DNA of 44,732 bases from Candidatus Woesearchaeota archaeon (lineage in GTDB: Archaea > Nanobdellota > Nanobdellia > CAZCWL01), in NCBI GenBank assembly GCA_964502435.1, contig CAZCWL010000001.1, positions 1 to 44,732 of the forward strand, given 5' to 3'. The translations under genes were made by a program, and so were the position numbers. The number at the start of each line of letters is the position of its first letter. Within the stretch, counting starts at the first letter, position 1. The notes beneath the pieces are model-generated. The model was given only the letters and a program-made list of their open reading frames with translations, was not told the DNA's origin and searched no databases. Below, piece by piece: positions 2,364-42,872 of the stretch.

Positions 2364-3213
2364 AGAATTAGGCTATGGTACTGACTGGATAAACAAAAGA
2401 TTGTATGACTCAATAAGGGTTAACACAATAAAGATAGATCCCTTAACTCTTAAGCAAAGGCTAGAATCACAAGGTTGGATACTAGAGCAGTTACCTTGGT
2501 ACAGTTATGGTTTCATTGTAAAGAACAGAACTACTGAACTTGGTAACACACTTGAACACTTTCTGGGGTATTACTACTCACAATCTGTGTCTAGTATGAT
2601 ACCTGTACTAGCATTAGAACCAAAGGGACTTATACTTGACATGGCAGCTGCTCCAGGCGGCAAAACTTCACAGATCGCACAACATTCTGGCGATCTTATA
2701 ATAGCTAATGACGTTAACAATGCAAGGCTAAACATTCTAGCTGCGAACCTACAAAGATTAGGAGTTAGCAACGTCATAATAACAAGAAAGCCTGGACAGA
2801 ACTTTCACAAAACAAGTATTAAATTTGATAGAGTTTTACTTGATGCGCCATGTTCATCACTAGGAACAGCAATGCATAACCCAAGAGTCCTAAAGCAATG
2901 GAGTCCAAAGTTCAGCGCAAAACTATCAAAACTCCAAAAGGCAATGGCAGAATCTGCGTTCCTATCTTTAAAGAAAGGTGGAATACTTGTGTATTCCACT
3001 TGTACTATAACTGTTGAAGAGAATGAAGAGATAATTAACCACCTAATCAGTCTTGGAGCCAAGGTTGAGGACATAAATTTAGACATTCCTCACCATGAGG
3101 GTATAACAGACTATAAAGGCAAGCACTACGATAATAGTATTAGCAAGTGCTGGAGAATACATCCAGATGATTTGGAATCAGAAGGATTTTTCATTGCGAG
3201 GTTGAGACGATGA
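2350..3213 (+). CDS. NOL1/NOP2/Sun-family RNA (cytosine-C5)-methyltransferase
   Basis: SAM motif DMAAAPGGKT and both catalytic Cys motifs (LLDAPCSSLG and VYSTCT). It overlaps the pyrH 3' end by 14 nt. Confidence 0.88.
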   Translation: MKHIEELGYGTDWINKRLYDSIRVNTIKIDPLTLKQRLESQGWILEQLPWYSYGFIVKNRTTELGNTLEHFLGYYYSQSVSSMIPVLALEPKGLILDMAAAPGGKTSQIAQHSGDLIIANDVNNARLNILAANLQRLGVSNVIITRKPGQNFHKTSIKFDRVLLDAPCSSLGTAMHNPRVLKQWSPKFSAKLSKLQKAMAESAFLSLKKGGILVYSTCTITVEENEEIINHLISLGAKVEDINLDIPHHEGITDYKGKHYDNSISKCWRIHPDDLESEGFFIARLRR

Positions 3214-3626
3214 AAAGGATAAAATCACGGGATGTCTATGCAATGCTTGAGTACTATGGCATCAAAAAAAGAATAAACGCCATATTCTTTGTCACAGAAG
3301 GCGGAAAAGTATTCATGATCCCGGAGTATATAGACATTCCTGCTAAAATCTACTCAGTAGGATTATGTATTGGTAAAATAGAAAAAGAAGGATTCAGGTT
3401 CACAATAGAAGGTGCACAAATATTTTACAATCTCGCAACTAAACAGATTCTAGAATTAAATGATGAACAATTGTATGACTGGGTTAGAGGCATAAATACA
3501 AAGGTAAATGTAAAAGATGGGTATTACATACTAAAATACAAAGACGATATTGTTGGTGGTGGAAAGGTAAAAAATGGGGTGCTCTGGAACTTCGTTAAGA
3601 AGAACAGGAGGATCAAAAAGCTATGA
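3210..3626 (+). CDS. Small putative RNA-binding protein, PUA/Nip7-like (tentative)
   Basis: ATGA overlap with the upstream methyltransferase. The C-terminal YYILKYKDDIVGGGKVKNGVLWNFVKKNRRI resembles the PUA-domain end of Nip7/UPF0113 proteins. This is pattern recognition only. Confidence 0.4.
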   Translation: MKRIKSRDVYAMLEYYGIKKRINAIFFVTEGGKVFMIPEYIDIPAKIYSVGLCIGKIEKEGFRFTIEGAQIFYNLATKQILELNDEQLYDWVRGINTKVNVKDGYYILKYKDDIVGGGKVKNGVLWNFVKKNRRIKKL

Positions 3627-4516
3627 TTGAAGTGCTACTATTTGTAGTCGGCTTAGGAGTATTAATTTATTCAGCAGAGTACTTAGTCAAATCAGTAGTT
3701 GGAACCTCTAAACTATCAGGAATACCTGTCTTTTTGATAAGTGTGTTATTTGTTGGGTTTGATCCAGAGAACTTAGCTACAGGTGTGATCAGCTCACTTA
3801 AAAACGCTTACAGCATAACAATGGGCAGCATAGTCGGTGCTGCAATGGTAGCTATCGGTTTAGCATTTGGTATCACAATACTTTTCTCTAATGTGAAATT
3901 TAAGCGTGTCTCATGGAAGGTAATGATTACACCCATACTTGCTACACTGTTGTTCTATACTCTAAGCTTAGATGGAGTATTGTCAAGGATAGATGGTATA
4001 ATTTTAGTTTTATCATTCATTGGCGCTATCTTTATTATGGTTAGGTCTAGAGTTGAAGTAGAAGCAGAACACATGGACATTAAATGGGGATTAGGCAAGT
4101 CTCTTGTGGTTCTAGCACTGTCTCTAATCGGAATTGTGGTAGGTAGTGAATTGTTAGTTAATGCCTCTAAGTCAGTAATGCACACAATTGGCATATCTGA
4201 GACATTCTTTGGTATGGTTATCGTCTCATTTTTGATAAGCATAGAAGAAATAGCAAGAGAATTGCCTGCTGCTATCAAAGGAAGATCGGACATAACATAT
4301 GGTAATGTGGTTGGGTCAATACTGCATTTCTTCCTCCTAAATGCAGGGTTAGTAGCTATAATTCATCCTGTTACAATCAGCAAACAAATACTTCAATACT
4401 TCCCTGTGATGCTGACTACAATCTTAGTTGCTTCTTTGATTCCAATTAAGAAGAAAGTCCCAAAATGGGCTGGATTAGTTTTAGTGTTGCTGTACATTAT
4501 TTTCATCTTAATTTAA
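3623..4516 (+). CDS. Ca2+/cation antiporter (CaCA, Na+/Ca2+ exchanger-like) membrane protein
   Basis: About 10 hydrophobic segments and two alpha-repeat-like motifs (GFDPENLATGV and IEEIARELPAAIKG...GNVVGS). ATGA overlap with the upstream gene. Confidence 0.6.
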   Translation: MIEVLLFVVGLGVLIYSAEYLVKSVVGTSKLSGIPVFLISVLFVGFDPENLATGVISSLKNAYSITMGSIVGAAMVAIGLAFGITILFSNVKFKRVSWKVMITPILATLLFYTLSLDGVLSRIDGIILVLSFIGAIFIMVRSRVEVEAEHMDIKWGLGKSLVVLALSLIGIVVGSELLVNASKSVMHTIGISETFFGMVIVSFLISIEEIARELPAAIKGRSDITYGNVVGSILHFFLLNAGLVAIIHPVTISKQILQYFPVMLTTILVASLIPIKKKVPKWAGLVLVLLYIIFILI

Positions 4517-4684: not shown

Positions 4685-4864
4685 ATGGGTATAGATAGTT
4701 TCTTTAAAAAGATTGGAAGTTCAATTGGAAAGCAAGTAAAGAAATCTCAGATTAATTTGAAACAAAGAGGAGAAATAAGAACCATAAAAGAAAAGTACCT
4801 TTCCAAGCTTTCTCATCGTGAACTTGTCCAAATCTACAAAACATATTTGGGGAACGAAGCATGA
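4685..4864 (+). CDS. Small ORF (59 aa) with an N-terminal amphipathic motif, hypothetical
   Basis: Not in the ORF track because it is under 60 aa. Sequence: MGIDSFFKKIGSSIGKQVKK...TYLGNEA. TTTATAAA lies about 35 nt upstream. Its TGA overlaps the ATG of the next gene (ATGA at 4861-4864). Confidence 0.4.
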   Translation: MGIDSFFKKIGSSIGKQVKKSQINLKQRGEIRTIKEKYLSKLSHRELVQIYKTYLGNEA

Positions 4865-5748
4865 CAAGAAAAAAAACAAGAAAATCCGGAAGAAAGGGAA
4901 GCAGGAGAAAGGAAGACGCCTTTGGCCTTGGAATTCCTGAAATGGAGATACCATCTTTTAACCTCGGATTCTCACAAGAGAAAAAGACAACAAGAAGTAG
5001 AAAAAGAGAAAACCCCTTCAGTTTAGAAATACCAAAAATTGAAACACCTCCCTTAGACCTTAGCCTTGGTGTAGAACAGAGAAGGATAGATCCCAACAAA
5101 ATGCCAAAAGTTAAACTAATTGGCATTCTTTCAAAACAATTATCTACAAACCAGATTTACCAATCACTTATTCGTTTAGGTAAGCATAGGTTGGCAGATG
5201 AATTTTTGAATGAGGTAAGATATATGACAGAAAAGTACAATAAAATGACAATGGGAATAGATGGTAAAATTGAAGAAAGTAGAGAGGAGAGGCTCCTGAA
5301 AGAAATAATTGAAGAGATTATTGGTTACATAAAGAGAGATTTTTACAGGGAAGTATTACCAAAACTTAAACCTAAAGATGAGGAGGATTTTAGTAAACAG
5401 TCACTACCTTTTTTAGCAGGTGTCTTATCTCCAATAAAAAGTTCATTTGAAAGATTAGGGGTAGACATCAAAATAGAACGAGAAAAAATTATTTCTGAAA
5501 GAGAAAGAATTGACTTGTTGATAACTGTCGGAAAAACGAGAATTGGCATAGAGCTCAAATACAATCCAACTAAAATGTCCGAGTTTGACCATTTAATGTC
5601 ACAAATCGATAGGTATATCCCGTACATTGATTACCTAGTGATAGTATCTTATTTACCTTTAGAGCCTTGGTTGATTGGAAAAATAAAAGAAAAGGAAATC
5701 GAAAAAGGGAAACCGATAAAAATAGTTACTCCAGACAAAGTAATCTAA
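4861..5748 (+). CDS. Hypothetical protein: basic tandem-repeat N-terminus plus a C-terminal PD-(D/E)xK nuclease-like domain
   Basis: The core F-[GS]-L-[GE]-IP-x-x-E-x-P-x-x-x-L occurs twice (aa 21-36 and 53-68), each copy preceded by an R/K-rich run. The C-terminal RIDLLITVGKTRIGIELKY gives D218 ... E231-x-K233, the restriction-endonuclease-fold signature. Confidence 0.55.
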   Translation: MTRKKTRKSGRKGSRRKEDAFGLGIPEMEIPSFNLGFSQEKKTTRSRKRENPFSLEIPKIETPPLDLSLGVEQRRIDPNKMPKVKLIGILSKQLSTNQIYQSLIRLGKHRLADEFLNEVRYMTEKYNKMTMGIDGKIEESREERLLKEIIEEIIGYIKRDFYREVLPKLKPKDEEDFSKQSLPFLAGVLSPIKSSFERLGVDIKIEREKIISERERIDLLITVGKTRIGIELKYNPTKMSEFDHLMSQIDRYIPYIDYLVIVSYLPLEPWLIGKIKEKEIEKGKPIKIVTPDKVI

Positions 5749-5911: not shown

Positions 5912-6045
5912 GCCCTGGTAGCTCAGTTGGTCAGAGCGGCTGCCTCGTATCAGATGAGGAAAACCTTAAATGAGGAAACAATGAAATAAAGAAGGTTATC
6001 TGATGAGAAAGCAGCAGGTCGAGGGTTCGAATCCCTCCCAGGGCT
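5912..6045 (+). tRNA. tRNA-Thr (anticodon CGU) interrupted by a 60-nt intron at the canonical 37/38 position
   Basis: Acceptor GCCCTGG/CCAGGGC, D arm GCTC-AGTTGGTCA-GAGC, anticodon stem GCTGC (5939-5943)/GCAGC (6011-6015), loop CTCGTA|intron|A, T arm GAGGG-TTCGAAT-CCCTC. Confidence 0.85.
5950..6009 (+). other. tRNA intron with a bulge-helix-bulge-like junction
   Basis: Anticodon-intron helix C32-U33-C34-G35 pairs with 6004-6007 (TGAG). The 3' bulge is AAA (6008-6010) and the 5' bulge is T36/A37/T5950. The inner helix is 5951-5955/5998-6002, continued by AACCTT (5962-5967)/AAGGTT (5992-5997). The splice position can slide by 1 nt without changing the mature sequence. Confidence 0.7.
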
Positions 6046-6115
6046 TCAAACGTCACGCCAAATTGAGATGTCTCACAAAGCTTTTAAATAAAACAATGCT
6101 ATAAAAGACAAGGTT

Positions 6116-6214
6116 ATGATGACTAAAAATATCCAAAACGACCATATGAAATCCTCTAAAATTTCTACGGGTGTTTACTGGCTAAGTTTTAGTGAGGTGT
6201 TAAAAAATGCGTAA
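6116..6214 (+). CDS. Possible 32-codon upstream ORF (leader peptide) overlapping the start of the aaRS-like gene
   Basis: Sequence: ATGATG...GCGTAA, MMTKNIQNDHMKSSKISTGVYWLSFSEVLKNA. TATA-like CTTTTAAATAAA (6080-6091) would place the transcription start near this ATG. It ends 8 nt inside the downstream CDS in another frame. There is no homology evidence. Confidence 0.2.
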   Translation: MMTKNIQNDHMKSSKISTGVYWLSFSEVLKNA

Positions 6215-6235
6215 ACTCTCAACCTCACTAAAACT
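6185..6235 (+). promoter_or_regulatory. Stem-loop sequestering the SD and start codon of the aaRS-like gene
   Basis: AGTTTTAGTGAGGT (6185-6198) is the perfect reverse complement of ACCTCACTAAAACT (6222-6235). The 23-nt loop holds the ATG (6207). The GAGGTG Shine-Dalgarno lies in the 5' arm. Confidence 0.6.
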
Positions 6236-7307
6236 CCGTCGGCCACCAAATGCTGCTGCTAACACAATTAAAAAGATCAAAAATCTCTTTGCAACAATTA
6301 GACCATCAACAACAGTCAACCTCCATTTTTCCTTTCAGCTAAATGGCCCTCCTCATCTTGGAACGCTTTTCTCGCTGACGTCACTCTTCGCAATCGCACA
6401 AATGCTCGAAGAAAAAGGGCTAAAGCCCAAAATCTTTATCAATATCCTTGAAAATGCGCCTGCAAAAATCTTTACTATCAGTAACAGGAAGTATGCAATC
6501 AACTTCTCTCACTTGAGAGTAAACGGCGAGCCCCTCATAAAGCGCTACCTTAAGCCATACCAGTTTATCTTCGAACTTCTCGCGAAGTCTACAAATATCA
6601 AACAATCCTCTCTCTTGTGGTATTCAGAGCTCCAAGCCACGCCAGCGTTCCGAAAAAGACTAATTTATATGCTTGAGCACTACGAAAGCTTTAGCAAGGT
6701 GCTTTCGCCATACGACAATCGTTTAAAGATTAGAATCCCATGCCCTCATTGTGGACTTCTCAGCAAGGACTCAAAAGCCATAAAAATTAAAAAGCTCGGC
6801 ACAAACAAGTATCTCCTTAGTTCAAATTGCCCATATCATGGTGTGCACACGACTCTTCTTTCAACTACCAACAAAGATTTAGTCGATGTCAATACGATTA
6901 TCCGAAATGTCATCAAAGAGTCAATTTTTATAGAGAAGGCGCAAAGCACTGGAGCTGCCAACGCCATGATTGAGGGGAGTGATTGGATGTACATTGTGCC
7001 CCTTATCGAAAAAGGTTTGGGTCTCCTTGGACACAATGTTTTGGAGTTCCCTATAAGAGTCTTTACACCCCTCGTCGTCGACAAGACTGGTGCTAAGCTT
7101 TCTAAACACATCCACGTTAAAGGAGGCTACCCCGAATACTCAGATTTTATAAACCACATCGGCGAAGAGCCTTGGAAATTCAAAGAAGAAATCCAAAGGC
7201 TGTACGCGTTTAGTCAAAAACTGCTCGATGATGCATTTATGTTTTATCGTAACTTCTCTGCAGATGTACTGGAAATTCTTATGGCAGGAGGCGAGTTAAA
7301 ATGGTAA
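6207..7307 (+). CDS. Class-I aminoacyl-tRNA-synthetase-like catalytic-core protein (HIGH/KMSKS nucleotidyltransferase fold), no anticodon-binding domain
   Basis: NGPPH50-L-G-T53 is HIGH-like and GAK297-L-S-K-H301 is KMSKS-like, about 247 aa apart. Putative Zn knuckle: C179-P-H-C182 ... C208-P-Y-H211. At 366 aa it is too short for a full aaRS. The DNA is C-rich and atypical for the window. Confidence 0.5.
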   Translation: MRKLSTSLKLRRPPNAAANTIKKIKNLFATIRPSTTVNLHFSFQLNGPPHLGTLFSLTSLFAIAQMLEEKGLKPKIFINILENAPAKIFTISNRKYAINFSHLRVNGEPLIKRYLKPYQFIFELLAKSTNIKQSSLLWYSELQATPAFRKRLIYMLEHYESFSKVLSPYDNRLKIRIPCPHCGLLSKDSKAIKIKKLGTNKYLLSSNCPYHGVHTTLLSTTNKDLVDVNTIIRNVIKESIFIEKAQSTGAANAMIEGSDWMYIVPLIEKGLGLLGHNVLEFPIRVFTPLVVDKTGAKLSKHIHVKGGYPEYSDFINHIGEEPWKFKEEIQRLYAFSQKLLDDAFMFYRNFSADVLEILMAGGELKW

Positions 7308-7813
7308 TTCTACTCAGCATCTATGAAGAGTATGTTAAATCTATTAGGGACGGTAAGAAAAGATACGAATTTCGAAAGAGGTATCCACTTAACAAGGAAA
7401 CGCTTGCGTTAATCTACGTCCCTCGCCCTGTTAAAGCAATAACATCATGGGCTCTATTTGGCAAACCAATAACAGGCGGAGTAAGAAAAATGTTAGAGCT
7501 AAAAAGCCCAAAAACCTACGACGAGAAATTATCTCTAATAAAGTATTTTGAAGCCAATAAAAAATGCTACGCCCTCCCAATCCTTAAATTTGGCGATCTC
7601 CAACCACCAATCTTCCTAAACGAGATGGCTAATTATAACATTAAACCACCACAACATATTATTTACCTCCACAAACACCAACAGCTATTAGAACTCGCTG
7701 CCTCTCGATCTCCAGAGTTTTCAGATCTTCTCTCTAAAACTCTAAGAAATCACTACAATTCATCATCTTTCTCTTTTAATAGCGAAGTCAAACACGTCAG
7801 AAATTCTATCTAA
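7301..7813 (+). CDS. ASCH/PUA-like domain protein
   Basis: The N-terminal ILLSIYEEYVKSIRDGKKRYEFRKRYP...LALIYVPRPVKAITSWALFG matches the ASCH pattern (I-x-p-x-y-x-x-I-x-x-G-x-K-x-x-E-x-R ... beta strand). It overlaps the upstream stop by 7 nt (ATGGTAA). Confidence 0.5.
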   Translation: MVILLSIYEEYVKSIRDGKKRYEFRKRYPLNKETLALIYVPRPVKAITSWALFGKPITGGVRKMLELKSPKTYDEKLSLIKYFEANKKCYALPILKFGDLQPPIFLNEMANYNIKPPQHIIYLHKHQQLLELAASRSPEFSDLLSKTLRNHYNSSSFSFNSEVKHVRNSI

Positions 7814-8851
7814 AAAGTATCTATTGACATAGTTGACATGGGGATTATCAAGAGTGGATAAGATAAACTTGGCTCTTCTGATACGCTCATTCATATCTGA
7901 CTTACTACGTTTGATTGCTTCTGTTTTATCAACAATCATCAAAACCTTGTCAACATCTCCTTCTCGAAGGTGTTTTAGCACACTTCTATCCTTTTGAGCT
8001 GCAAGAAGTATAGGGTAAGTAAGTTTACCTTCCTCTATATCATTTTTCTTCTTAAGAAGCTTTTCTGGGCTCTCTAAACCCATAATATCATCCTTTATCT
8101 GAAAGGCTATACCTGCATGCAAACCAGCATAATAAAGTTGACTGTAGTATATTTCAGGAGCGTCTGCAAGTATTGAACCAAATACAAGTGGCCCGCTGAA
8201 GGTATAAACAGCTGTCTTGGATAAATGCACATCCTTAACCAACATGTATAAACTTCTGTATGGTCTTTTCTCTAGATTCATATGAGCAGTATGCACATCA
8301 ATAACTTGACCATAGCCAGTAGTCAGAAGCACATCTGTTACAAACTTAGCAGCTTTGATCCTTCGTTCAAGAGGAAAATCATCAGCTTCAAGTAGAGCCT
8401 TGTATCCAAGATGAGCTAAAATGTTTCCAGCTATCATTGCCATAGACTCCCCAAAATGTTTCGGTGCCCTAAAGCCTTTAGCTTCAGCCTCAAACCTTCT
8501 ATGCATAGAAGGTTCTCCTCTTCTCACATCATCTTCGTCCATAATATCATCATGAATCAGTAGATACGCATGGAAAAGTTCAAGAGACGCAAAAGCTGTT
8601 AAATCTACAGGAAATTCATAATCAAACGTGTAATATCCAAAAATTGAAAGAATCGGCCTTATTCTCTTCCCAGGGCCTTTCGTAAAGCGTGAAGCTTTAT
8701 TGTAGAAAAGGTCAGACTCATATGAGTGAAAGGACGGAAATTCCGAGCTATACATCGGGATAGTTGAAGAAGGGTGTGTAGACGCCAAAAAACGTTCCAA
8801 AGTCTCATCAATCTTCTCCCCATACTCCTTCAGTAATGCCTCAATTTCCAT
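7763..8851 (-). CDS. Polyprenyl (geranylgeranyl) diphosphate synthase
   Basis: First Asp-rich motif LLIHDDIMDEDDVRRG and second motif FQIKDDIMG. Confidence 0.88.
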   Translation of the reverse strand: MEIEALLKEYGEKIDETLERFLASTHPSSTIPMYSSEFPSFHSYESDLFYNKASRFTKGPGKRIRPILSIFGYYTFDYEFPVDLTAFASLELFHAYLLIHDDIMDEDDVRRGEPSMHRRFEAEAKGFRAPKHFGESMAMIAGNILAHLGYKALLEADDFPLERRIKAAKFVTDVLLTTGYGQVIDVHTAHMNLEKRPYRSLYMLVKDVHLSKTAVYTFSGPLVFGSILADAPEIYYSQLYYAGLHAGIAFQIKDDIMGLESPEKLLKKKNDIEEGKLTYPILLAAQKDRSVLKHLREGDVDKVLMIVDKTEAIKRSKSDMNERIRRAKFILSTLDNPHVNYVNRYFLDRISDVFDFAIKRER

Positions 8852-18153: not shown

Positions 18154-20925
18154 ATGGATTTTGTTAAAGTTGCGGAAAAATGGCAAAAAAAGTGGGAATC
18201 AAAAAAGGTCCACCAAGCAGACGTAAAGGAGAAGAAAAAATACTTTGTGACGTTTCCTTACCCATACATAAACGGAGAACCACACATTGGTCATGCATAC
18301 ACGTTTGTAAAAGCTGATATTCTTGCCAGATTTAAAAGAATGCAAGGTTACAACGTGCTATTTCCACAAGGGTGGCATGCTACAGGACAACCACTGTATG
18401 CTAACTGGACAAAGCTAGCAAACGGCGATAAAGAAGCAGAAGAAATGTACAGGAAAGCAGGAGCAACCGACAAGGACATCGAAAAAATAAAAAAAGACAT
18501 AAAAAACGCTGTAGAGTTCTGGGTTAAAAAATGGAGAGAAGGGTTCAATTCAATGAGTATAAGCGTTGACTGGAGGAGGGAATTCATAACTACAGAACTA
18601 AACCCATACTACTCTAAGTTCGTTGAGTGGCAGTTCAGAAAATTGAAGGATATGGGGTTAGTAGTGCAAAAAGAACATCCTGTTGTTTGGTGTCCAAAAT
18701 GTAAATCAACAACAGGAGACCACGACAGGTTAAAAGGTGAAGGTGAAACACCAGTAGAGTACATACTTATCAAATTCCGATACAATGACATGATACTTCC
18801 TGCAGCAACGTTTAGGCCAGAGACAGTGTACGGAGTAACTAACATGTGGATCAATCCAAAAGTAGAGTATGTAATAGCAGAAGTAGGAAAGGAGAAGTGG
18901 ATAGTAAGCAAAGAAGCATTTGAGAAGCTTAAACTCCAAAAAGAAGTAAAACAAGTTGGAAAGGTCAACGGTAGCGAGTTAATAGGGAAAAGTTGTACAA
19001 ACCCTGTAACTAAAGAGGATGTTCCAATACTGCAGGCAGAGTTTGTTGATCCAAACAATGGCACAGGTGTAGTGATGTCTGTACCAGCTCATGCTCCATA
19101 TGATTACATAGCATTAAAAGACATAGGTATGCTTGACAAGGTAAAAATAAAATCAATAATCCATACACCTGGGCTTGGTGAAGTTCCTGCCAAAGATATG
19201 ATAGAAGAGATGAGGATAGAGAACCAGAACGATCCAAAGTTGGAAACAGCCACAAAGGAATTGTACAAAAAAGAATTCCACATGGGCAGATTAAAAGATA
19301 ATTGCGGGTTGTACTCGGGCAAAAAAGTATCTGACTGTAAAGAAGATCTATCAGAAGCGTTTAAAAAAGAAGGAATAGCAGACTCTCTATGGGAACTAAC
19401 AGGTGAAGTGATATGTAGATGTGGAACAAGGTGTGTTATTAAAATAGTAAAAAACCAGTGGTTTATAAAATACTCTGACAAGTATTGGAAGGAGAAAACA
19501 AGATCCTGCTTAAAAAATTTGACTACCTGGCCAAAAGAAGTAAAAGGCATACTAGAAGAAGGTATAAGCTGGGTGAGGGACAAAGCTTGTACCAGAACAA
19601 CAGGACTAGGAACACACTTACCATGGGATAAAAAGTGGATCATAGAATCATTGAGTGATTCTACAATCTACCCTGCATTCTACGCCATTGATTACATACT
19701 AAAAACAATCGATGAAAACAAAGTAGATGATAAACTGTTTGACTATGTGTTACTGGGTGAAGGCAGCATAGATGAATTCGACGACGATATAAAAGACAAG
19801 ATCATAAAGATGAGAAAAGAATTCGAGTACTGGTATCCTGTAGACGCGAGGATCTCAGCAAAGGATCTTCTAAAGAATCATTTCCTATTCTACTTATTTA
19901 ACCACACAGCAATATTTCCAAAGGATAAATGGCCATTAGGAATAGGAGCCAATGGTGTTATAAAGGTTGGGGAATCAAAGATGAGCAAATCACTAGGGAA
20001 TTTCAGAACACTCAGTGACGTAGCAAAACAGTACGGTCCAGACATAGTAAGAATCGCCCTAGCAGGAGCAGGAGAAGGATTAGAAGACGCAATCTGGGAT
20101 GATAGAGCACCACTTGGATACAAATCAAGATTAGAGTACATCGAGTCCATAGTTGAAAAAATGGACAGCATCGGGGAAACAGAGAGACAGATAGACAAAT
20201 ACCTAATATCCAAAATGCAGACAATAATAAGAGACGTTGTAAAACATTATGAAAATCTGGAAACAAGAAGCGCTGTTCAAAAATCAATCTACGAAGCAAC
20301 AAATGATCTTAAATGGTACTTCCAAAGAGGAGGAAACAACAGAGCTGTTGTGAAATACGCTCTGGAAACGATAATAAAACTGTTAACACCAGTTGTGCCT
20401 CACTGGGCAGAGGAACTGTGGCACAAACTGAATAATAAAAAACTTGTTGTCACAGAGAGATTCCCAAGAGAAGACATAAGAAAGATAAACACAGCAGCAG
20501 AGAGAGGGGAAGAACTAGTCAAAAATGTAGCAGACGACATAAGACACATAATCAAAATAACAGGTAAAAAGCCATCTAAGATAAAGATAATAACATCACC
20601 TGCGTGGAAGTACTATGTTTATGACATGTTCCTTGTTCTGCATAAAGAAGAGGGGATAAAGGACGTCAAAAAATTGATAGATCGAATCCTGAAAAGAACT
20701 GAAATAAAACCGCATGCTAAAGAGGTAGCAATGATAGTAGCTAACCTGATAAAGAAATCAGTAATACCCCTAGATAGAGATCAAGAGATAATAACACTAA
20801 ATGATGCAAAGGATTACTTTAAATCCCAGTTCAAATGCGAAGTCGAAATAGAAAGTGGCGACGAATCAAAAGAAGAGAAAGCGTCAAAAGCCCTGCCAAT
20901 GAAGCCAGCAATAATTCTCATCTGA
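18154..20925 (+). CDS. leuS: Leucyl-tRNA synthetase (archaeal type)
   Basis: PYPYINGEPHIGHAYTF (HIGH), KMSKSLGN, and an inserted editing domain. 923 aa. Confidence 0.92.
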   Translation: MDFVKVAEKWQKKWESKKVHQADVKEKKKYFVTFPYPYINGEPHIGHAYTFVKADILARFKRMQGYNVLFPQGWHATGQPLYANWTKLANGDKEAEEMYRKAGATDKDIEKIKKDIKNAVEFWVKKWREGFNSMSISVDWRREFITTELNPYYSKFVEWQFRKLKDMGLVVQKEHPVVWCPKCKSTTGDHDRLKGEGETPVEYILIKFRYNDMILPAATFRPETVYGVTNMWINPKVEYVIAEVGKEKWIVSKEAFEKLKLQKEVKQVGKVNGSELIGKSCTNPVTKEDVPILQAEFVDPNNGTGVVMSVPAHAPYDYIALKDIGMLDKVKIKSIIHTPGLGEVPAKDMIEEMRIENQNDPKLETATKELYKKEFHMGRLKDNCGLYSGKKVSDCKEDLSEAFKKEGIADSLWELTGEVICRCGTRCVIKIVKNQWFIKYSDKYWKEKTRSCLKNLTTWPKEVKGILEEGISWVRDKACTRTTGLGTHLPWDKKWIIESLSDSTIYPAFYAIDYILKTIDENKVDDKLFDYVLLGEGSIDEFDDDIKDKIIKMRKEFEYWYPVDARISAKDLLKNHFLFYLFNHTAIFPKDKWPLGIGANGVIKVGESKMSKSLGNFRTLSDVAKQYGPDIVRIALAGAGEGLEDAIWDDRAPLGYKSRLEYIESIVEKMDSIGETERQIDKYLISKMQTIIRDVVKHYENLETRSAVQKSIYEATNDLKWYFQRGGNNRAVVKYALETIIKLLTPVVPHWAEELWHKLNNKKLVVTERFPREDIRKINTAAERGEELVKNVADDIRHIIKITGKKPSKIKIITSPAWKYYVYDMFLVLHKEEGIKDVKKLIDRILKRTEIKPHAKEVAMIVANLIKKSVIPLDRDQEIITLNDAKDYFKSQFKCEVEIESGDESKEEKASKALPMKPAIILI

Positions 20926-41189: not shown

Positions 41190-42872
41190 TTACATAAATT
41201 CAGGAATCTCTATGCCAAAGAGTGATAGTCCTTGCTTAAGAGTTTCATACGTCCGCTGCACTAGGTACAAACGCACATGCTTCTTGCTCTCTTCAGCAGT
41301 TAAAACAGGACATTTTTCGTAGAATCTGTTAAACCTGTCAGCAAGTGAAACGAGATACTCTGCTAACTTACTTGCTGACATTTCTTTTGCACAATCCTCA
41401 ACAATGTGGCCAAATAGTGAAATGTGTTTAGCAAGAGAGTACTCTACATCATCTAAGTCAGAAGAAACTTTACTCTCAAAGTCAGCTTTATCCATTATCT
41501 TCTTAGCTCGAACAGCAGCGTACTGAATGTAAACAGAGGATTCTCCTTCAAAACTAAGTACTTTATCCCAATCAAACACTATCTGCTTTCTTGGGTTGTA
41601 CTTAGCAAGGAAAAACTTAACAGCCCCATGAGCTATCTTCTCTGCTACTTTCTCCGGAGAGCCATACTTCTGCCTGACCTCATCTCTAATCTTCTTAACA
41701 GCCTTCTCTAAAACAGTGTCTGCCTCATATCCTTGCCAATTCCCAGACCTACCAGAGAACTTACCACCAGGCAAAACAACTGTATTGTAGCTTAGGTGGA
41801 TGTAATCATTATTTATACCAATAGAGCGTAGTATATGTTTTATTATCTTCTGCTGGAGGTCTTGCTCATTAGATATCACAAGCACTATCTTATCTGCATT
41901 AGGAGTGTACAGTTCACCATTACTACACGTATGTTTGTAAGAATTATTACACACAGGGATAGAAGAGTACCCAAATCTCCATAGTTCCATGGCAAGATCC
42001 TTTGCAGTGTAAGTAGCAGTTCCATTAGACCTAACAAGTATTTTATAGTTTGTCTTAAGTCCTGCCTCAGGAATGTCAACAACAGTACAACCTTTGTCCT
42101 CACCATGCTCAACAACTCTAACAAGGCCCTTTGACTTTAAGTCAGACATAACACGATCAAACAATCCACTTTTAATGACGTCACTTTCCCAAACAAATAA
42201 ATCATAATTGATATTAAATTTACTAGCAGTATCAAGCTGAGAAGCTAAGCATTTTTCTGCAATGTTTCTGGAGAATTTGGCAATAGGATTATCACCCTGT
42301 TCTATGAGTTTCAAAGTAGAATCAACCTGCTGCTTAACAGTTGCGTCTGTCTCATACAAGGAGTTAGCTTTGATGTATATCTCACCTAACCAATGATCAT
42401 ACTTTTTATCTGCGTCTAAACCATGCTTAGATAAGTACCATACAACCATTGCCATCTGCTTACCAACATCGTTTATGTAATTTTGGACCTCAACATCGTA
42501 ACCAACATAACGGAGTATTCTTGACATCGTATCACCTAAACAAGCATTCCTAGCATGACCTATGTGCCATGGTTTCATAGGGTTAACACTTGTATGTTCT
42601 AACACGATTTTCCCTTCAAGTTTTGGTTTGTAGCTGTAAGTTAACACTTTGTCCTTTTTGAAAAACACATTGACATAGCCACCAACAACGTCTACATGAT
42701 CAATGTAATCATGCTTCAACTTAGAAGCAACACGTTTAGCATATTCCATAGGGCTAATTCCTTCCTTCTTGGCAGGCTCAAAACAAGTTATGGAAACATC
42801 ACCCATACCTTCTGGAGGTATGTCTAAGTAATCCTTCAAATCAGGTACAACTTCTTCCACAATCTTGTACAT
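41190..42872 (-). CDS. argS: Arginyl-tRNA synthetase
   Basis: HTSVNPMKPWHIGHARN (HIGH region), class-I core, C-terminal DALR-type anticodon-binding domain ending ...IPEFM. Confidence 0.9.
   Translation of the reverse strand: MYKIVEEVVPDLKDYLDIPPEGMGDVSITCFEPAKKEGISPMEYAKRVASKLKHDYIDHVDVVGGYVNVFFKKDKVLTYSYKPKLEGKIVLEHTSVNPMKPWHIGHARNACLGDTMSRILRYVGYDVEVQNYINDVGKQMAMVVWYLSKHGLDADKKYDHWLGEIYIKANSLYETDATVKQQVDSTLKLIEQGDNPIAKFSRNIAEKCLASQLDTASKFNINYDLFVWESDVIKSGLFDRVMSDLKSKGLVRVVEHGEDKGCTVVDIPEAGLKTNYKILVRSNGTATYTAKDLAMELWRFGYSSIPVCNNSYKHTCSNGELYTPNADKIVLVISNEQDLQQKIIKHILRSIGINNDYIHLSYNTVVLPGGKFSGRSGNWQGYEADTVLEKAVKKIRDEVRQKYGSPEKVAEKIAHGAVKFFLAKYNPRKQIVFDWDKVLSFEGESSVYIQYAAVRAKKIMDKADFESKVSSDLDDVEYSLAKHISLFGHIVEDCAKEMSASKLAEYLVSLADRFNRFYEKCPVLTAEESKKHVRLYLVQRTYETLKQGLSLFGIEIPEFM

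Follow-up and report, generated by a model that had tools for sequence, protein, structure and literature searches.

A truncated class I aminoacyl-tRNA synthetase-like ligase coupled to an ASCH protein in a DPANN archaeal contig and on bacterial mobile elements

The DNA analyzed here (hereafter referred to as the window) is a stretch of 44,732 nt, constituting an entire 44.7-kb contig of the metagenome-assembled genome of a DPANN archaeon; source records list its proteins under "Nanoarchaeota archaeon" or "Candidatus Aenigmarchaeota". It carries, on the + strand, two overlapping open reading frames (ORFs). The first (positions 6207–7307) encodes a truncated class I aminoacyl-tRNA synthetase (aaRS)-like protein of 366 aa (hereafter referred to as the ligase), with a Rossmann core into which a zinc ribbon is inserted and a short bundle of helices at the C-terminus; the second (7301–7813) encodes a 170-aa ASCH protein with a PUA-like beta-barrel, assigned to the ZmASCH type on the basis of its profile, fold and signature octapeptide. 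The ASCH gene starts within the stop region of the ligase gene, the two genes sharing the 7 nt ATGGTAA (7301–7307, + strand), exactly as described in the first-pass annotation of this DNA, and this overlap indicates translational coupling. Its fold and its HIGH and KMSKS motifs place the 366-aa protein in the class I aaRS catalytic superfamily, and the pair, which moves horizontally, most likely forms one functional unit. The class I aaRS and ASCH superfamilies are both known; the novelty lies in the pairing with ASCH, the truncated core bearing a zinc ribbon, and the distribution over mobile elements.

The ligase contains a HIGH-type motif, HLGT (aa 50–53, within QLNGPPHLGT; 6354–6365, + strand), and a KMSKS-type motif, KLSKH (aa 297–301, within GAKLSKH; 7095–7109, + strand), separated by 247 aa, the second lying 65 aa from the C-terminus. 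Between them are a CPxC...CxxH zinc ribbon in the CP1 position (aa 179–211; 6741–6839, + strand) and a GxDW motif, GSDW (aa 257–260; 6975–6986, + strand), which we take to be the G-x-D-x ribose-binding motif of class I aaRSs, located where the second Rossmann half begins. Invariance was scored over 14 homologues with only 25–61% identity. The residues P49, H50 and G52 of the first motif, C179, P180, C182, C208 and H211 of the ribbon, G257, D259 and W260 of GSDW, and G295, K297, S299 and K300 of the last motif were all invariant, as were Q44, N83, R176, D227 and R233. In a larger set of 159 family members, the patterns PH[LIFV]G[TS], G.DW and G[AGS]K[LF]SK were the rule, and the CxxC...CxxH knuckle was found in 123. 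The HLGT, KLSKH and C179-x2-C182...C208-x2-H211 motifs had been proposed from the sequence of the window alone; their invariance in the 14 homologues and prevalence in the 159 members indicate that they are no chance feature, and this conservation rules out the interpretation of the ligase gene as a chance ORF.

The AlphaFold2 (AF2) model of the ligase (pLDDT 88.3, pTM 0.87) begins with a strand (aa 36–44), the HIGH loop (PHLGT, aa 49–53) and a helix. The zinc ribbon (aa 176–219, with beta-strands at 184–219) sits between the strands at 134–138 and 251–257 in this model, splitting the two Rossmann halves; profile and Pfam-type searches yielded only weak zinc-ribbon sequence matches for this insertion. 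Confidence falls below a pLDDT of 50 at aa 301–306, immediately after KLSKH, as would be expected for a mobile KMSKS loop, and the modeled chain ends in a short helical bundle (aa 313–359). In a Foldseek search against the PDB, the top match was the class I lysyl-tRNA synthetase (LysRS-I) 1irx (E 1.1e-9, TMq 0.54, 306 aligned columns), followed by many GluRS structures and then by CysRS, BshC, MetRS and ArgRS. The 13 best matches were all LysRS-I or GluRS chains, and nearly all of the top 50 were class I aaRSs, with BshC and PyrN as exceptions. Likewise, in a comparison of the family profile with PDB sequences, PHlGT aligned with the HIGH motif of GluRS (PHVGT) and GAKLSKS with the GluRS motif G(T/A)KLSK(R), albeit at an E-value of 0.029. 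The model thus matches the catalytic domains of class I aaRSs, with a Rossmann core, and the equivalence of HLGT and KLSKH with HIGH and KMSKS holds at the level of the fold match and of the profile alignment with GluRS. The order of the fold matches also bears out the suggestion, made from motif spacing in the first-pass annotation, that the ligase is closest to the Glu/Gln/Lys-I subclass.

The ligase falls outside every curated aaRS family, because no family threshold was reached and the anticodon-binding domain is absent. Single-protein searches of Pfam, NCBIfam and PDB sequences with the ligase gave nothing significant, and none of the 14 members scored above the threshold of a Pfam or NCBIfam model. 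The best sub-threshold Pfam scores among these members were obtained for tRNA-synt_1f (E 0.15, in one member) and tRNA-synt_1b (E 0.027, in four members); tRNA-synt_1c was absent from their matches and the thresholds of PF01921 and PF00749 were not reached. As predicted from its length, the ligase has no normal anticodon-binding domain, since it ends 65 residues after the KMSKS motif and only the short helical bundle is modeled in this region. The genuine LeuRS (18154–20925) and ArgRS (41190–42872) of the window, which had been noted as looking completely different, do carry full anticodon-binding domains (Anticodon_1 and DALR). A 467-aa product of a homologous locus (P0002 in L001) has a ~100-aa N-terminal extension (6001–6303) unique among the homologues; the true start is probably the ATG at ~6304, preceded by GGTGA, and the extension is likely to be an annotation artefact.

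The 170-aa partner is a member of the ASCH superfamily, in the ZmASCH subgroup, confirming the ASCH-type assignment initially made for it. The Pfam ASCH model (PF04266) matched only aa 5–30 and remained below threshold (E 0.008; 17.3 vs 21.2 bits). A word-index search with the protein alone recovered only itself, and a five-sequence profile recovered 13 proteins; the profile built from 13 homologues matched ZmASCH with an E-value of 8e-27, and three ASCH homologues (P0162, P0165 and P0170) carry PF04266. The AF2 model (pLDDT 90) matched the ZmASCH structure 5gus in Foldseek (E 2e-11, TM 0.79, 29% identity), with weaker matches to TTHA0113, the TRIP4 ASCH domain bound to double-stranded DNA, McrB N-terminal domains and YqfB. 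The protein also matched PADLOC PDC-M11B (E 3.6e-17) and phrog_3136 (E 8e-16) over the full length of both models; no PDC-M11A model was matched by the ligase or by the neighbors tested for this component.

The signature octapeptide of the partner, GKKRYEFR (aa 19–26; the interval 7355–7375 on the + strand spans aa 19–25), belongs to the "GKER" class, according to the published class definitions (bioRxiv 10.64898/2026.02.27.708502; PMC6972931), and its residues K20, E23 and R25 were invariant in the partner alignment (A4). ZmASCH of Zymomonas mobilis (5guq/5gus) belongs to the same subfamily: the GKxxxExR octapeptide is kept, and the residues Y47, K53 and Q127 of its nucleic-acid cleft are conserved as Y39, K45 and Q118 in the window partner, with S128 replaced by His. 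ZmASCH, which was studied as a stand-alone protein, is a Mg-dependent RNase specific for single-stranded RNA (ssRNA) in vitro (PMC5615036), and no partnership with a ligase has been reported for it. The identification of the partner as a YqfB-type amidohydrolase was rejected. YqfB has a Thr-Lys-Glu catalytic triad with its Thr in the octapeptide (GKxxTxR; PMC6972931), and the partner shares the ASCH fold and retains the octapeptide Lys and Arg, but the position of the nucleophile, Thr24, is occupied by Glu23, an invariant Glu in A4, and the fold similarity to YqfB is weak (E 0.012–0.03).

The coupling between ligase and ASCH was assessed with hidden Markov models (HMMs) for the ligase and for two types of partner: T1, ZmASCH-like, of ~135–170 aa, the type present in the window, and T2, classic PF04266, of ~115 aa. 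We scored 152 loci, 150 of which were informative, the other two being cut by the contig end. An ASCH domain was found directly 3' of the ligase, on the same strand, in 138 of the 150 loci (87 with a separate T2, 36 with a fused T2 and 15 with a separate T1), and was absent from this position in 12. The gap between the two domain matches was 7–63 nt in most loci, and independent ligase-ASCH fusions were identified in protein databases (P0007, P0026 and P0104). The expected co-occurrence of the two genes in other genomes is therefore well established. Sequence clusters of the ligase tracked the partner type, the window ligase and its 60%-identical homologue from L001 forming a deep T1-associated branch of their own, no more than 34% identical to the rest. 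In an alphaproteobacterial clade (L005–L008; P0012/P0013; ~9137–10715 in L005), with a context resembling that of integrative and conjugative elements, a radical S-adenosylmethionine (SAM) enzyme and a HIT protein replace ASCH. In a clade from Bacilli, the ligase is preceded by an AlkZ-like glycosylase and followed by an AdoMet_dc-family decarboxylase, and P0066 is a ligase::AdoMet_dc fusion. Two further observations were made at individual loci. The radical SAM enzyme of L005–L008 is weakly similar to pVip models (E 1.6e-14), over the radical SAM core only. One contig (L026) encodes the ligase together with both a T1 and a T2 ASCH beside a fragment of the archaeal PolD large subunit (2392–3924) with an intein and a LAGLIDADG domain; the PolD fragment indicates that this contig is archaeal, with two ASCH types in one operon.

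The ligase had been described as an orphan in the first-pass annotation; this label was wrong, because its family has hundreds of members. A word-indexed homologue search recovered only 14 relatives, and, when 1.84 billion cluster representatives were searched exhaustively with an HMM, 539 ligase clusters were returned at E<=1e-3 and 199 at E<=1e-30; the ligase also corresponds to phrog_35625 in PHROGs, "tRNA synthetase" (E 6e-32). This automatic label, in PHROGs and in phage annotations, is the only one given to the family, for which there is no description in Pfam, NCBIfam or the literature searched; the claim that no well-described family accounts for the ligase was thus upheld. Likewise, the literature searched contains no account of a pairing of ASCH with an aaRS-like or LysRS-I protein, including under PDC-M11 or defense. 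A hand-built degenerate DNA pattern (GxDW...P...G[AG]K[LF]SK), which matched 21 of 31 known loci, was found in at least 120 stretches from GTDB species representatives, each containing a ligase gene. Among these listed matches, 71 were from Streptomyces and ~36 from other Actinomycetota, the remainder coming from Clostridia, Bacilli (including Laceyella), Patescibacteria (including Saccharibacteria), one Schleiferiaceae genome and one archaeon of the Nanobdellati (DPANN).

Many of the loci lie on mobile elements. In the Streptomyces phages Picard and Mojorita, the ligase is gp28 ("tRNA synthetase"), overlapping the ASCH gene gp29 ("RNA-binding protein") beside a serine integrase, and in Picard the pair is located between the lysis and repressor genes. 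Plasmid-borne ligase genes were identified in Streptomyces, Amycolatopsis, Prauserella, Pantoea and Macrococcus, 13 IMG/VR contigs hold the ligase, and other loci adjoin genes for TrwB-type coupling proteins, ArdC, integrases, resolvases and helix-turn-helix (HTH) regulators.

The composition of the pair in the window was compared over ORFs of at least 120 aa (n=38). Coding-strand GC skew was -0.15 for the ligase (z -4.5) and -0.25 for ASCH (z -5.9), against +0.154 +/- 0.068 for the other 36 ORFs, all of which had a positive skew; these two genes are, therefore, the only ones with C>G on the coding strand, and the C excess noted by eye is real. G+C content at third codon positions (GC3) in the ligase (0.452, z 3.3) was the highest of the 38 ORFs. 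By contrast, bulk G+C content is ordinary: 0.41–0.42 in 1-kb windows around the module, within a contig range of 0.32–0.44, with 0.420 for the ligase (z 1.6, rank 34/38) and 0.372 for ASCH, such that the 43–50% given in the first-pass annotation was an overestimate. The two proteins were also described as poor in Lys, Glu and Ile, but these residues account for 0.237 and 0.251 of their sequences, against a window mean of 0.247. The concept of a compositionally foreign islet thus stands for strand skew and ligase GC3 and falls for bulk G+C content, and the strand skew and GC3 support a recent foreign origin of the module. Insertion at the adjacent tRNA-Thr gene is plausible. No convincing direct repeat of the 3' end of this tRNA was found downstream (the best was 17 nt long, with 76% identity) and no integrase was found near 6046–7813, such that the module lacks these hallmarks of a tRNA-targeted integrative element. 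Among metagenomic relatives of the polyprenyl synthase gene flanking the module, the sole close contig (L158) is from the same strain and has the pair, the others being no more than 39% identical.

Several known aaRSs and aaRS-like enzymes provide points of comparison. LysRS-I of Pyrococcus horikoshii (1irx) is the best structural match of the ligase, but the two proteins are only 13% identical, tRNA-synt_1f reaches no more than the sub-threshold score reported above, and nothing in the ligase corresponds to the last ~190 residues of LysRS-I, which form its anticodon-binding and C-terminal domains. Glu-Q-RS (YadB) is a truncated GluRS paralogue that glutamylates queuosine-34 of tRNA-Asp; it has a class I core with HIGH and KMSKS motifs, a Cys/His zinc site in an inserted domain and no anticodon-binding domain. 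GluRS structures form the second-best fold group of the ligase, with HIGH and KMSKS aligned by profile; however, similarity to GluRS is marginal (the E-value of 0.029 given above), the ligase has no Pfam tRNA-synt_1c match, and YadB is chromosomal and lacks an ASCH partner, whereas the ligase family is found on mobile elements. The CysRS-like enzymes MshC and BshC, of mycothiol and bacillithiol synthesis, have truncated or rearranged class I folds and join an amino acid to a small molecule, and BshC (4wbd) is among the fold matches of the ligase (E 4.9e-5). Nevertheless, BshC ranks far below LysRS-I and GluRS, no relationship of the ligase to either enzyme was detected other than the common fold, the thiol gene context is absent, and neither enzyme has an ASCH partner. 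TmcAL, the cytidine acetate ligase for tRNA-Met, is aaRS-like, forms acetyl-adenylate with ATP and acylates N4 of tRNA C34 (PMC12514573). ASCH proteins bind and erase this same modification, providing a functional precedent for the ligase-ASCH pairing, but TmcAL has no detectable sequence relationship to the ligase, is outside the top 50 fold matches, and is a housekeeping enzyme with no known ASCH pairing.

We favor, at about an even chance of its being correct, an explanation in which the pair is an ATP-dependent acyl- or aminoacyl-adenylate ligase with ASCH as its targeting part, a polynucleotide, preferably RNA, as the acceptor, and a role in conflict. Judging from its sequence and model, the ligase has every class I aaRS core element needed for ATP binding and adenylate formation. 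It would use ATP to activate a carboxylate as an acyl-adenylate, probably that of an amino acid given its affinities with LysRS-I and GluRS. ASCH would replace the lost tRNA-recognition domain, binding a nucleoside moiety and positioning it for the ligase, and the acyl group would then be moved to the base or ribose of the polynucleotide. By analogy with Glu-Q-RS and TmcAL, RNA (tRNA or ssRNA) would be the favored acceptor for a ZmASCH-type partner. For the window pair, a polynucleotide, RNA first, is favored because the ZmASCH-type cleft is conserved, both proteins are basic (isoelectric points, pI, of 9.7 and 9.8) and no pathway genes lie alongside; we infer, as had already been proposed from the gene overlap, that the pair acts on RNA. 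ASCH proteins bind tRNA and remove N4-acyl groups, and many remove N4-acetylcytidine (ac4C) from nucleosides and tRNA (bioRxiv 10.64898/2026.02.27.708502). Acyl transfer by a ligase-ASCH pair is chemically reasonable in light of the TmcAL and Glu-Q-RS precedents, N4-acylcytidine being what ASCH enzymes recognize and hydrolyze. Carriage by phages, plasmids and islands suggests that the role of the pair is likely to lie in conflict between mobile element and host, through the protection or sabotage of nucleic acids, rather than in housekeeping translation.

Several observations weigh against this explanation. ZmASCH did not deacetylate ac4C (bioRxiv 10.64898/2026.02.27.708502). The ASCH partners of the actinomycete and phage branch are acidic (pI 5.0–5.8), which argues against polynucleotide binding as a general feature. 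Recurrent neighbors of the ligase act on free nucleotides (NUDIX, HIT, AAA_28 kinase, phosphatases, LOG/TIGR00730, RdgB and transporters) and would fit a small-molecule acceptor, whereas the occurrence of ZmASCH-type proteins beside DNA C5-cytosine methyltransferases, and of AlkZ-like glycosylases near some ligases, points to DNA instead of RNA. No PADLOC model matched the ligase, and a scan for T-boxes and riboswitches upstream of the ligase genes of 17 loci detected none near the ligase. A broader version, in which the family would consist of ASCH-guided, aaRS-derived "writers" aminoacylating or acylating a nucleobase (at N4 of cytosine, for example) of RNA or DNA after its synthesis, spread by phages, plasmids and islands through Bacteria and Archaea as weapons or shields in virus-host conflict, with accessory genes (AdoMet decarboxylase-like, AlaDH-like, SAM-dependent methyltransferase, radical SAM, NUDIX/HIT) elaborating the adduct into hypermodified bases, strikes us as rather unlikely.

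The acceptor might instead be a small molecule, such as a free nucleotide or nucleoside, the ligase acting like MshC/BshC or the ligases of nucleoside-antibiotic synthesis to yield a modified nucleotide serving as a toxin, signal or chain terminator. ASCH would bind the nucleoside part or hydrolyze it, in the way that YqfB acts on free N4-acylcytidine. This reading is a serious possibility, although short of a probable one. It would account for the many NUDIX, HIT, AAA_28 NadR-like kinase, low-molecular-weight (LMW) and His phosphatase and HAD neighbors, for the Pantoea plasmid with its SAM-dependent methyltransferase, LOG/TIGR00730, DMT exporter and RdgB genes, for the two ATP-grasp ligases and MFS transporter of the Macrococcus plasmid, for the clade with radical SAM and HIT proteins instead of ASCH, and for the acidity of the phage-borne partners; it is also consistent with the presence of BshC among the fold matches and with the activity of YqfB on free nucleosides (PMC6972931). 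However, in the window, phage Picard and many plasmids, the pair stands as a two-gene core lacking an exporter or pathway genes, the partner in the window is a basic ZmASCH-type protein with a conserved cleft, and the best fold matches are tRNA-charging enzymes rather than MshC/BshC. DNA is an unlikely acceptor. The pair would then decorate a DNA base (cytosine or a hydroxymethyl-pyrimidine), for anti-restriction or epigenetic hypermodification of the mobile element, with ASCH as a base-flipping reader. The C5-cytosine methyltransferase and restriction-modification genes adjoining ZmASCH-type proteins on a Vagococcus plasmid and a Terrisporobacter phage, the AlkZ-like DNA glycosylase, ArdC and SAM-dependent methyltransferase genes near ligases, the TRIP4 ASCH domain on double-stranded DNA and McrB N-terminal domains among the fold matches of the partner, and the report in the literature of an ASCH-like 5-hydroxymethylcytosine DNA glycosylase all point in this direction. 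Yet phage Picard and the archaeal window have no hydroxymethylase or other base-precursor genes, the neighboring methyltransferases belong to small-molecule or RNA-type class I families rather than DNA methyltransferase families, and, to our knowledge, RNA, proteins or small molecules are the substrates of every truncated aaRS paralogue described.

We consider it highly unlikely that the pair is a toxin-antitoxin or abortive-infection system in which the ligase would misacylate an essential RNA and ASCH would reverse this modification or degrade the target, as antidote or RNase. An overlapping two-gene operon on mobile elements, the match of the partner to the defense candidate PDC-M11B, the capacity of ASCH proteins to erase N4-acyl groups, the RNase activity of ZmASCH in vitro and the position of the Picard pair beside an integrase, between lysis and repressor genes, would all be in keeping with such a system, but 36 of the 138 pairs are fused, which is unusual for antagonistic partners, the Thr nucleophile of YqfB is missing from an octapeptide of the GKER class, and the ligase is not in the PADLOC models. 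The possibility that the ligase is a divergent housekeeping LysRS or GluRS of a reduced DPANN genome can be given almost no weight and was rejected: despite the best fold match being LysRS-I and the streamlining of DPANN genomes, the anticodon-binding domain is missing, none of the 14 members reached a Pfam aaRS threshold, the same family occurs in phages, plasmids and the genomes of at least 71 Streptomyces species, which can be expected to have their own full sets of aaRSs, and the composition of the gene is atypical for the window.

Truncated aaRS paralogues and relatives, such as YadB, MshC, TmcAL and the cyclodipeptide synthases, have repeatedly revealed new chemistry. The ligase family is common (539 clusters, in dozens of Streptomyces species, phages, plasmids, the candidate phyla radiation and DPANN archaea) but is covered by neither a Pfam nor an NCBIfam model, and the biochemical role of ASCH, including ac4C erasure, RNA cleavage and modified-base recognition, is only now emerging. 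The pairing provides a concrete, testable hypothesis for both families, and gp28/gp29 of phage Picard, with Streptomyces as the host, constitute a tractable system for its study. The pair is not unique to the window, which instead flags a sizeable uncharacterized enzyme family and suggests that mobile elements use an unrecognized modification of nucleic acids or nucleotides.

The wider gene neighborhoods were explored by clustering 621 neighboring ORFs and annotating the cluster representatives. The most frequent neighbors were class I SAM methyltransferases (25 loci), followed by an AAA_28 NadR-like P-loop kinase and an anti-sigma-like HATPase, both directly upstream, an NsdA-like regulator (493 aa) and an unknown protein of 326 aa (16 loci each); neither the 326-aa nor the 493-aa protein had a PDB or Pfam match. 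NUDIX proteins were found in 10 loci, AdoMet_dc in seven, AlkZ-like DNA glycosylases and LMW phosphatases in six each, and AlaDH-like dehydrogenases in five. The Pantoea plasmid operon comprises genes for a SAM-dependent methyltransferase, the ligase, LOG/TIGR00730, a DMT transporter and RdgB, and the Macrococcus plasmid combines two ATP-grasp ligases with the ligase, a T1 ASCH and an MFS transporter. In a recurrent extended cluster (L028, 582–5021; L002, 3570–9658; L035/L143), the ligase and a T1 ASCH are joined by an AdoMet_dc-family pyruvoyl decarboxylase, an AlaDH/PNT-like dehydrogenase and a class I SAM-dependent methyltransferase, sometimes with a 2-oxoglutarate-Fe(II) oxygenase and an AlkZ-like glycosylase in addition; this cluster, to which the P0066 fusion also belongs, looks like a multi-step modification or biosynthetic pathway. 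Its five core genes were found side by side on several metagenomic contigs. The common theme of these neighborhoods is chemistry on nucleotides or nucleic acids.

In Streptomyces, the pair (Picard L010, 3499–7349, gp24–gp29; L068, L108 and L111) lies within WhiJ-like regulatory cassettes containing an Xre-type HTH protein, DUF397, an anti-sigma-like HATPase and an NsdA-like TPR regulator, suggesting developmental or stress regulation. Stand-alone ZmASCH-type proteins are also frequent in phages (psiM2/psiM100, Streptococcus pyogenes prophages and SopEPhi) and on plasmids, and in the two cases inspected, on the Vagococcus plasmid (L155, 3995–6429) and in the Terrisporobacter phage (L156, 3992–6732), genes for DNA C5-cytosine methyltransferases and an LlaMI-type restriction enzyme follow immediately downstream of them. 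This adjacency hints that the ZmASCH subgroup reads or regulates cytosine modification in DNA, and may explain the PDC-M11B label.

In the window itself, the module is surrounded by ordinary chromosomal genes, including those for an ATP-dependent DNA ligase, an S-layer protein, Lon, a Rad50-like ATPase and RsmB, in addition to LeuRS and ArgRS. Its left neighbor is an intron-containing tRNA-Thr(CGU) gene (5912–6045, + strand), separated from the ligase ORF by a spacer of 161 nt. The presence of this tRNA gene, already noted from the sequence, was corroborated by an Rfam match (RF00005, 59.6 bits). Reading of the sequence by eye identified an anticodon loop CT-CGT-A and an intron of ~60 nt after position 37, the CGT anticodon specifying tRNA-Thr; ARAGORN in bacterial mode missed this gene because of the intron. 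On the other side, a convergent polyprenyl synthase gene (7763–8851; PF00348, E 4e-43) overlaps the 3' end of the ASCH gene by 51 nt at its own 3' end (7763–7813). The last ~20 aa of the ASCH protein are disordered and this C-terminal tail is missing from the 150-aa orthologue of L001, suggesting that it is a read-through extension arising after insertion.

A hairpin identified from an inverted repeat and RNA folding (6178–6247, + strand) encloses both a GAGGTG resembling a Shine-Dalgarno sequence and the start codon, ATG, of the ligase gene. Its stem is a perfect 14-bp inverted repeat (6185–6198/6222–6235) and its folding energy is -30.2 kcal/mol (z -5.8), none of 200 shuffled sequences being equally stable. 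The hairpin is not kept in the 60%-identical homologue of L001; it may control translation of the ligase or serve as an operator. Finally, an ORF of 295 aa just upstream of the tRNA-Thr gene (4861–5748) encodes a protein with a repetitive, Lys/Arg-rich N-terminus and weak matches to PD-(D/E)XK_4 (E 0.007), PADLOC PDC-S26 (E 7e-5) and phrog_5928 (E 1.5e-5), and may be a second accessory or defense-type gene beside the module.

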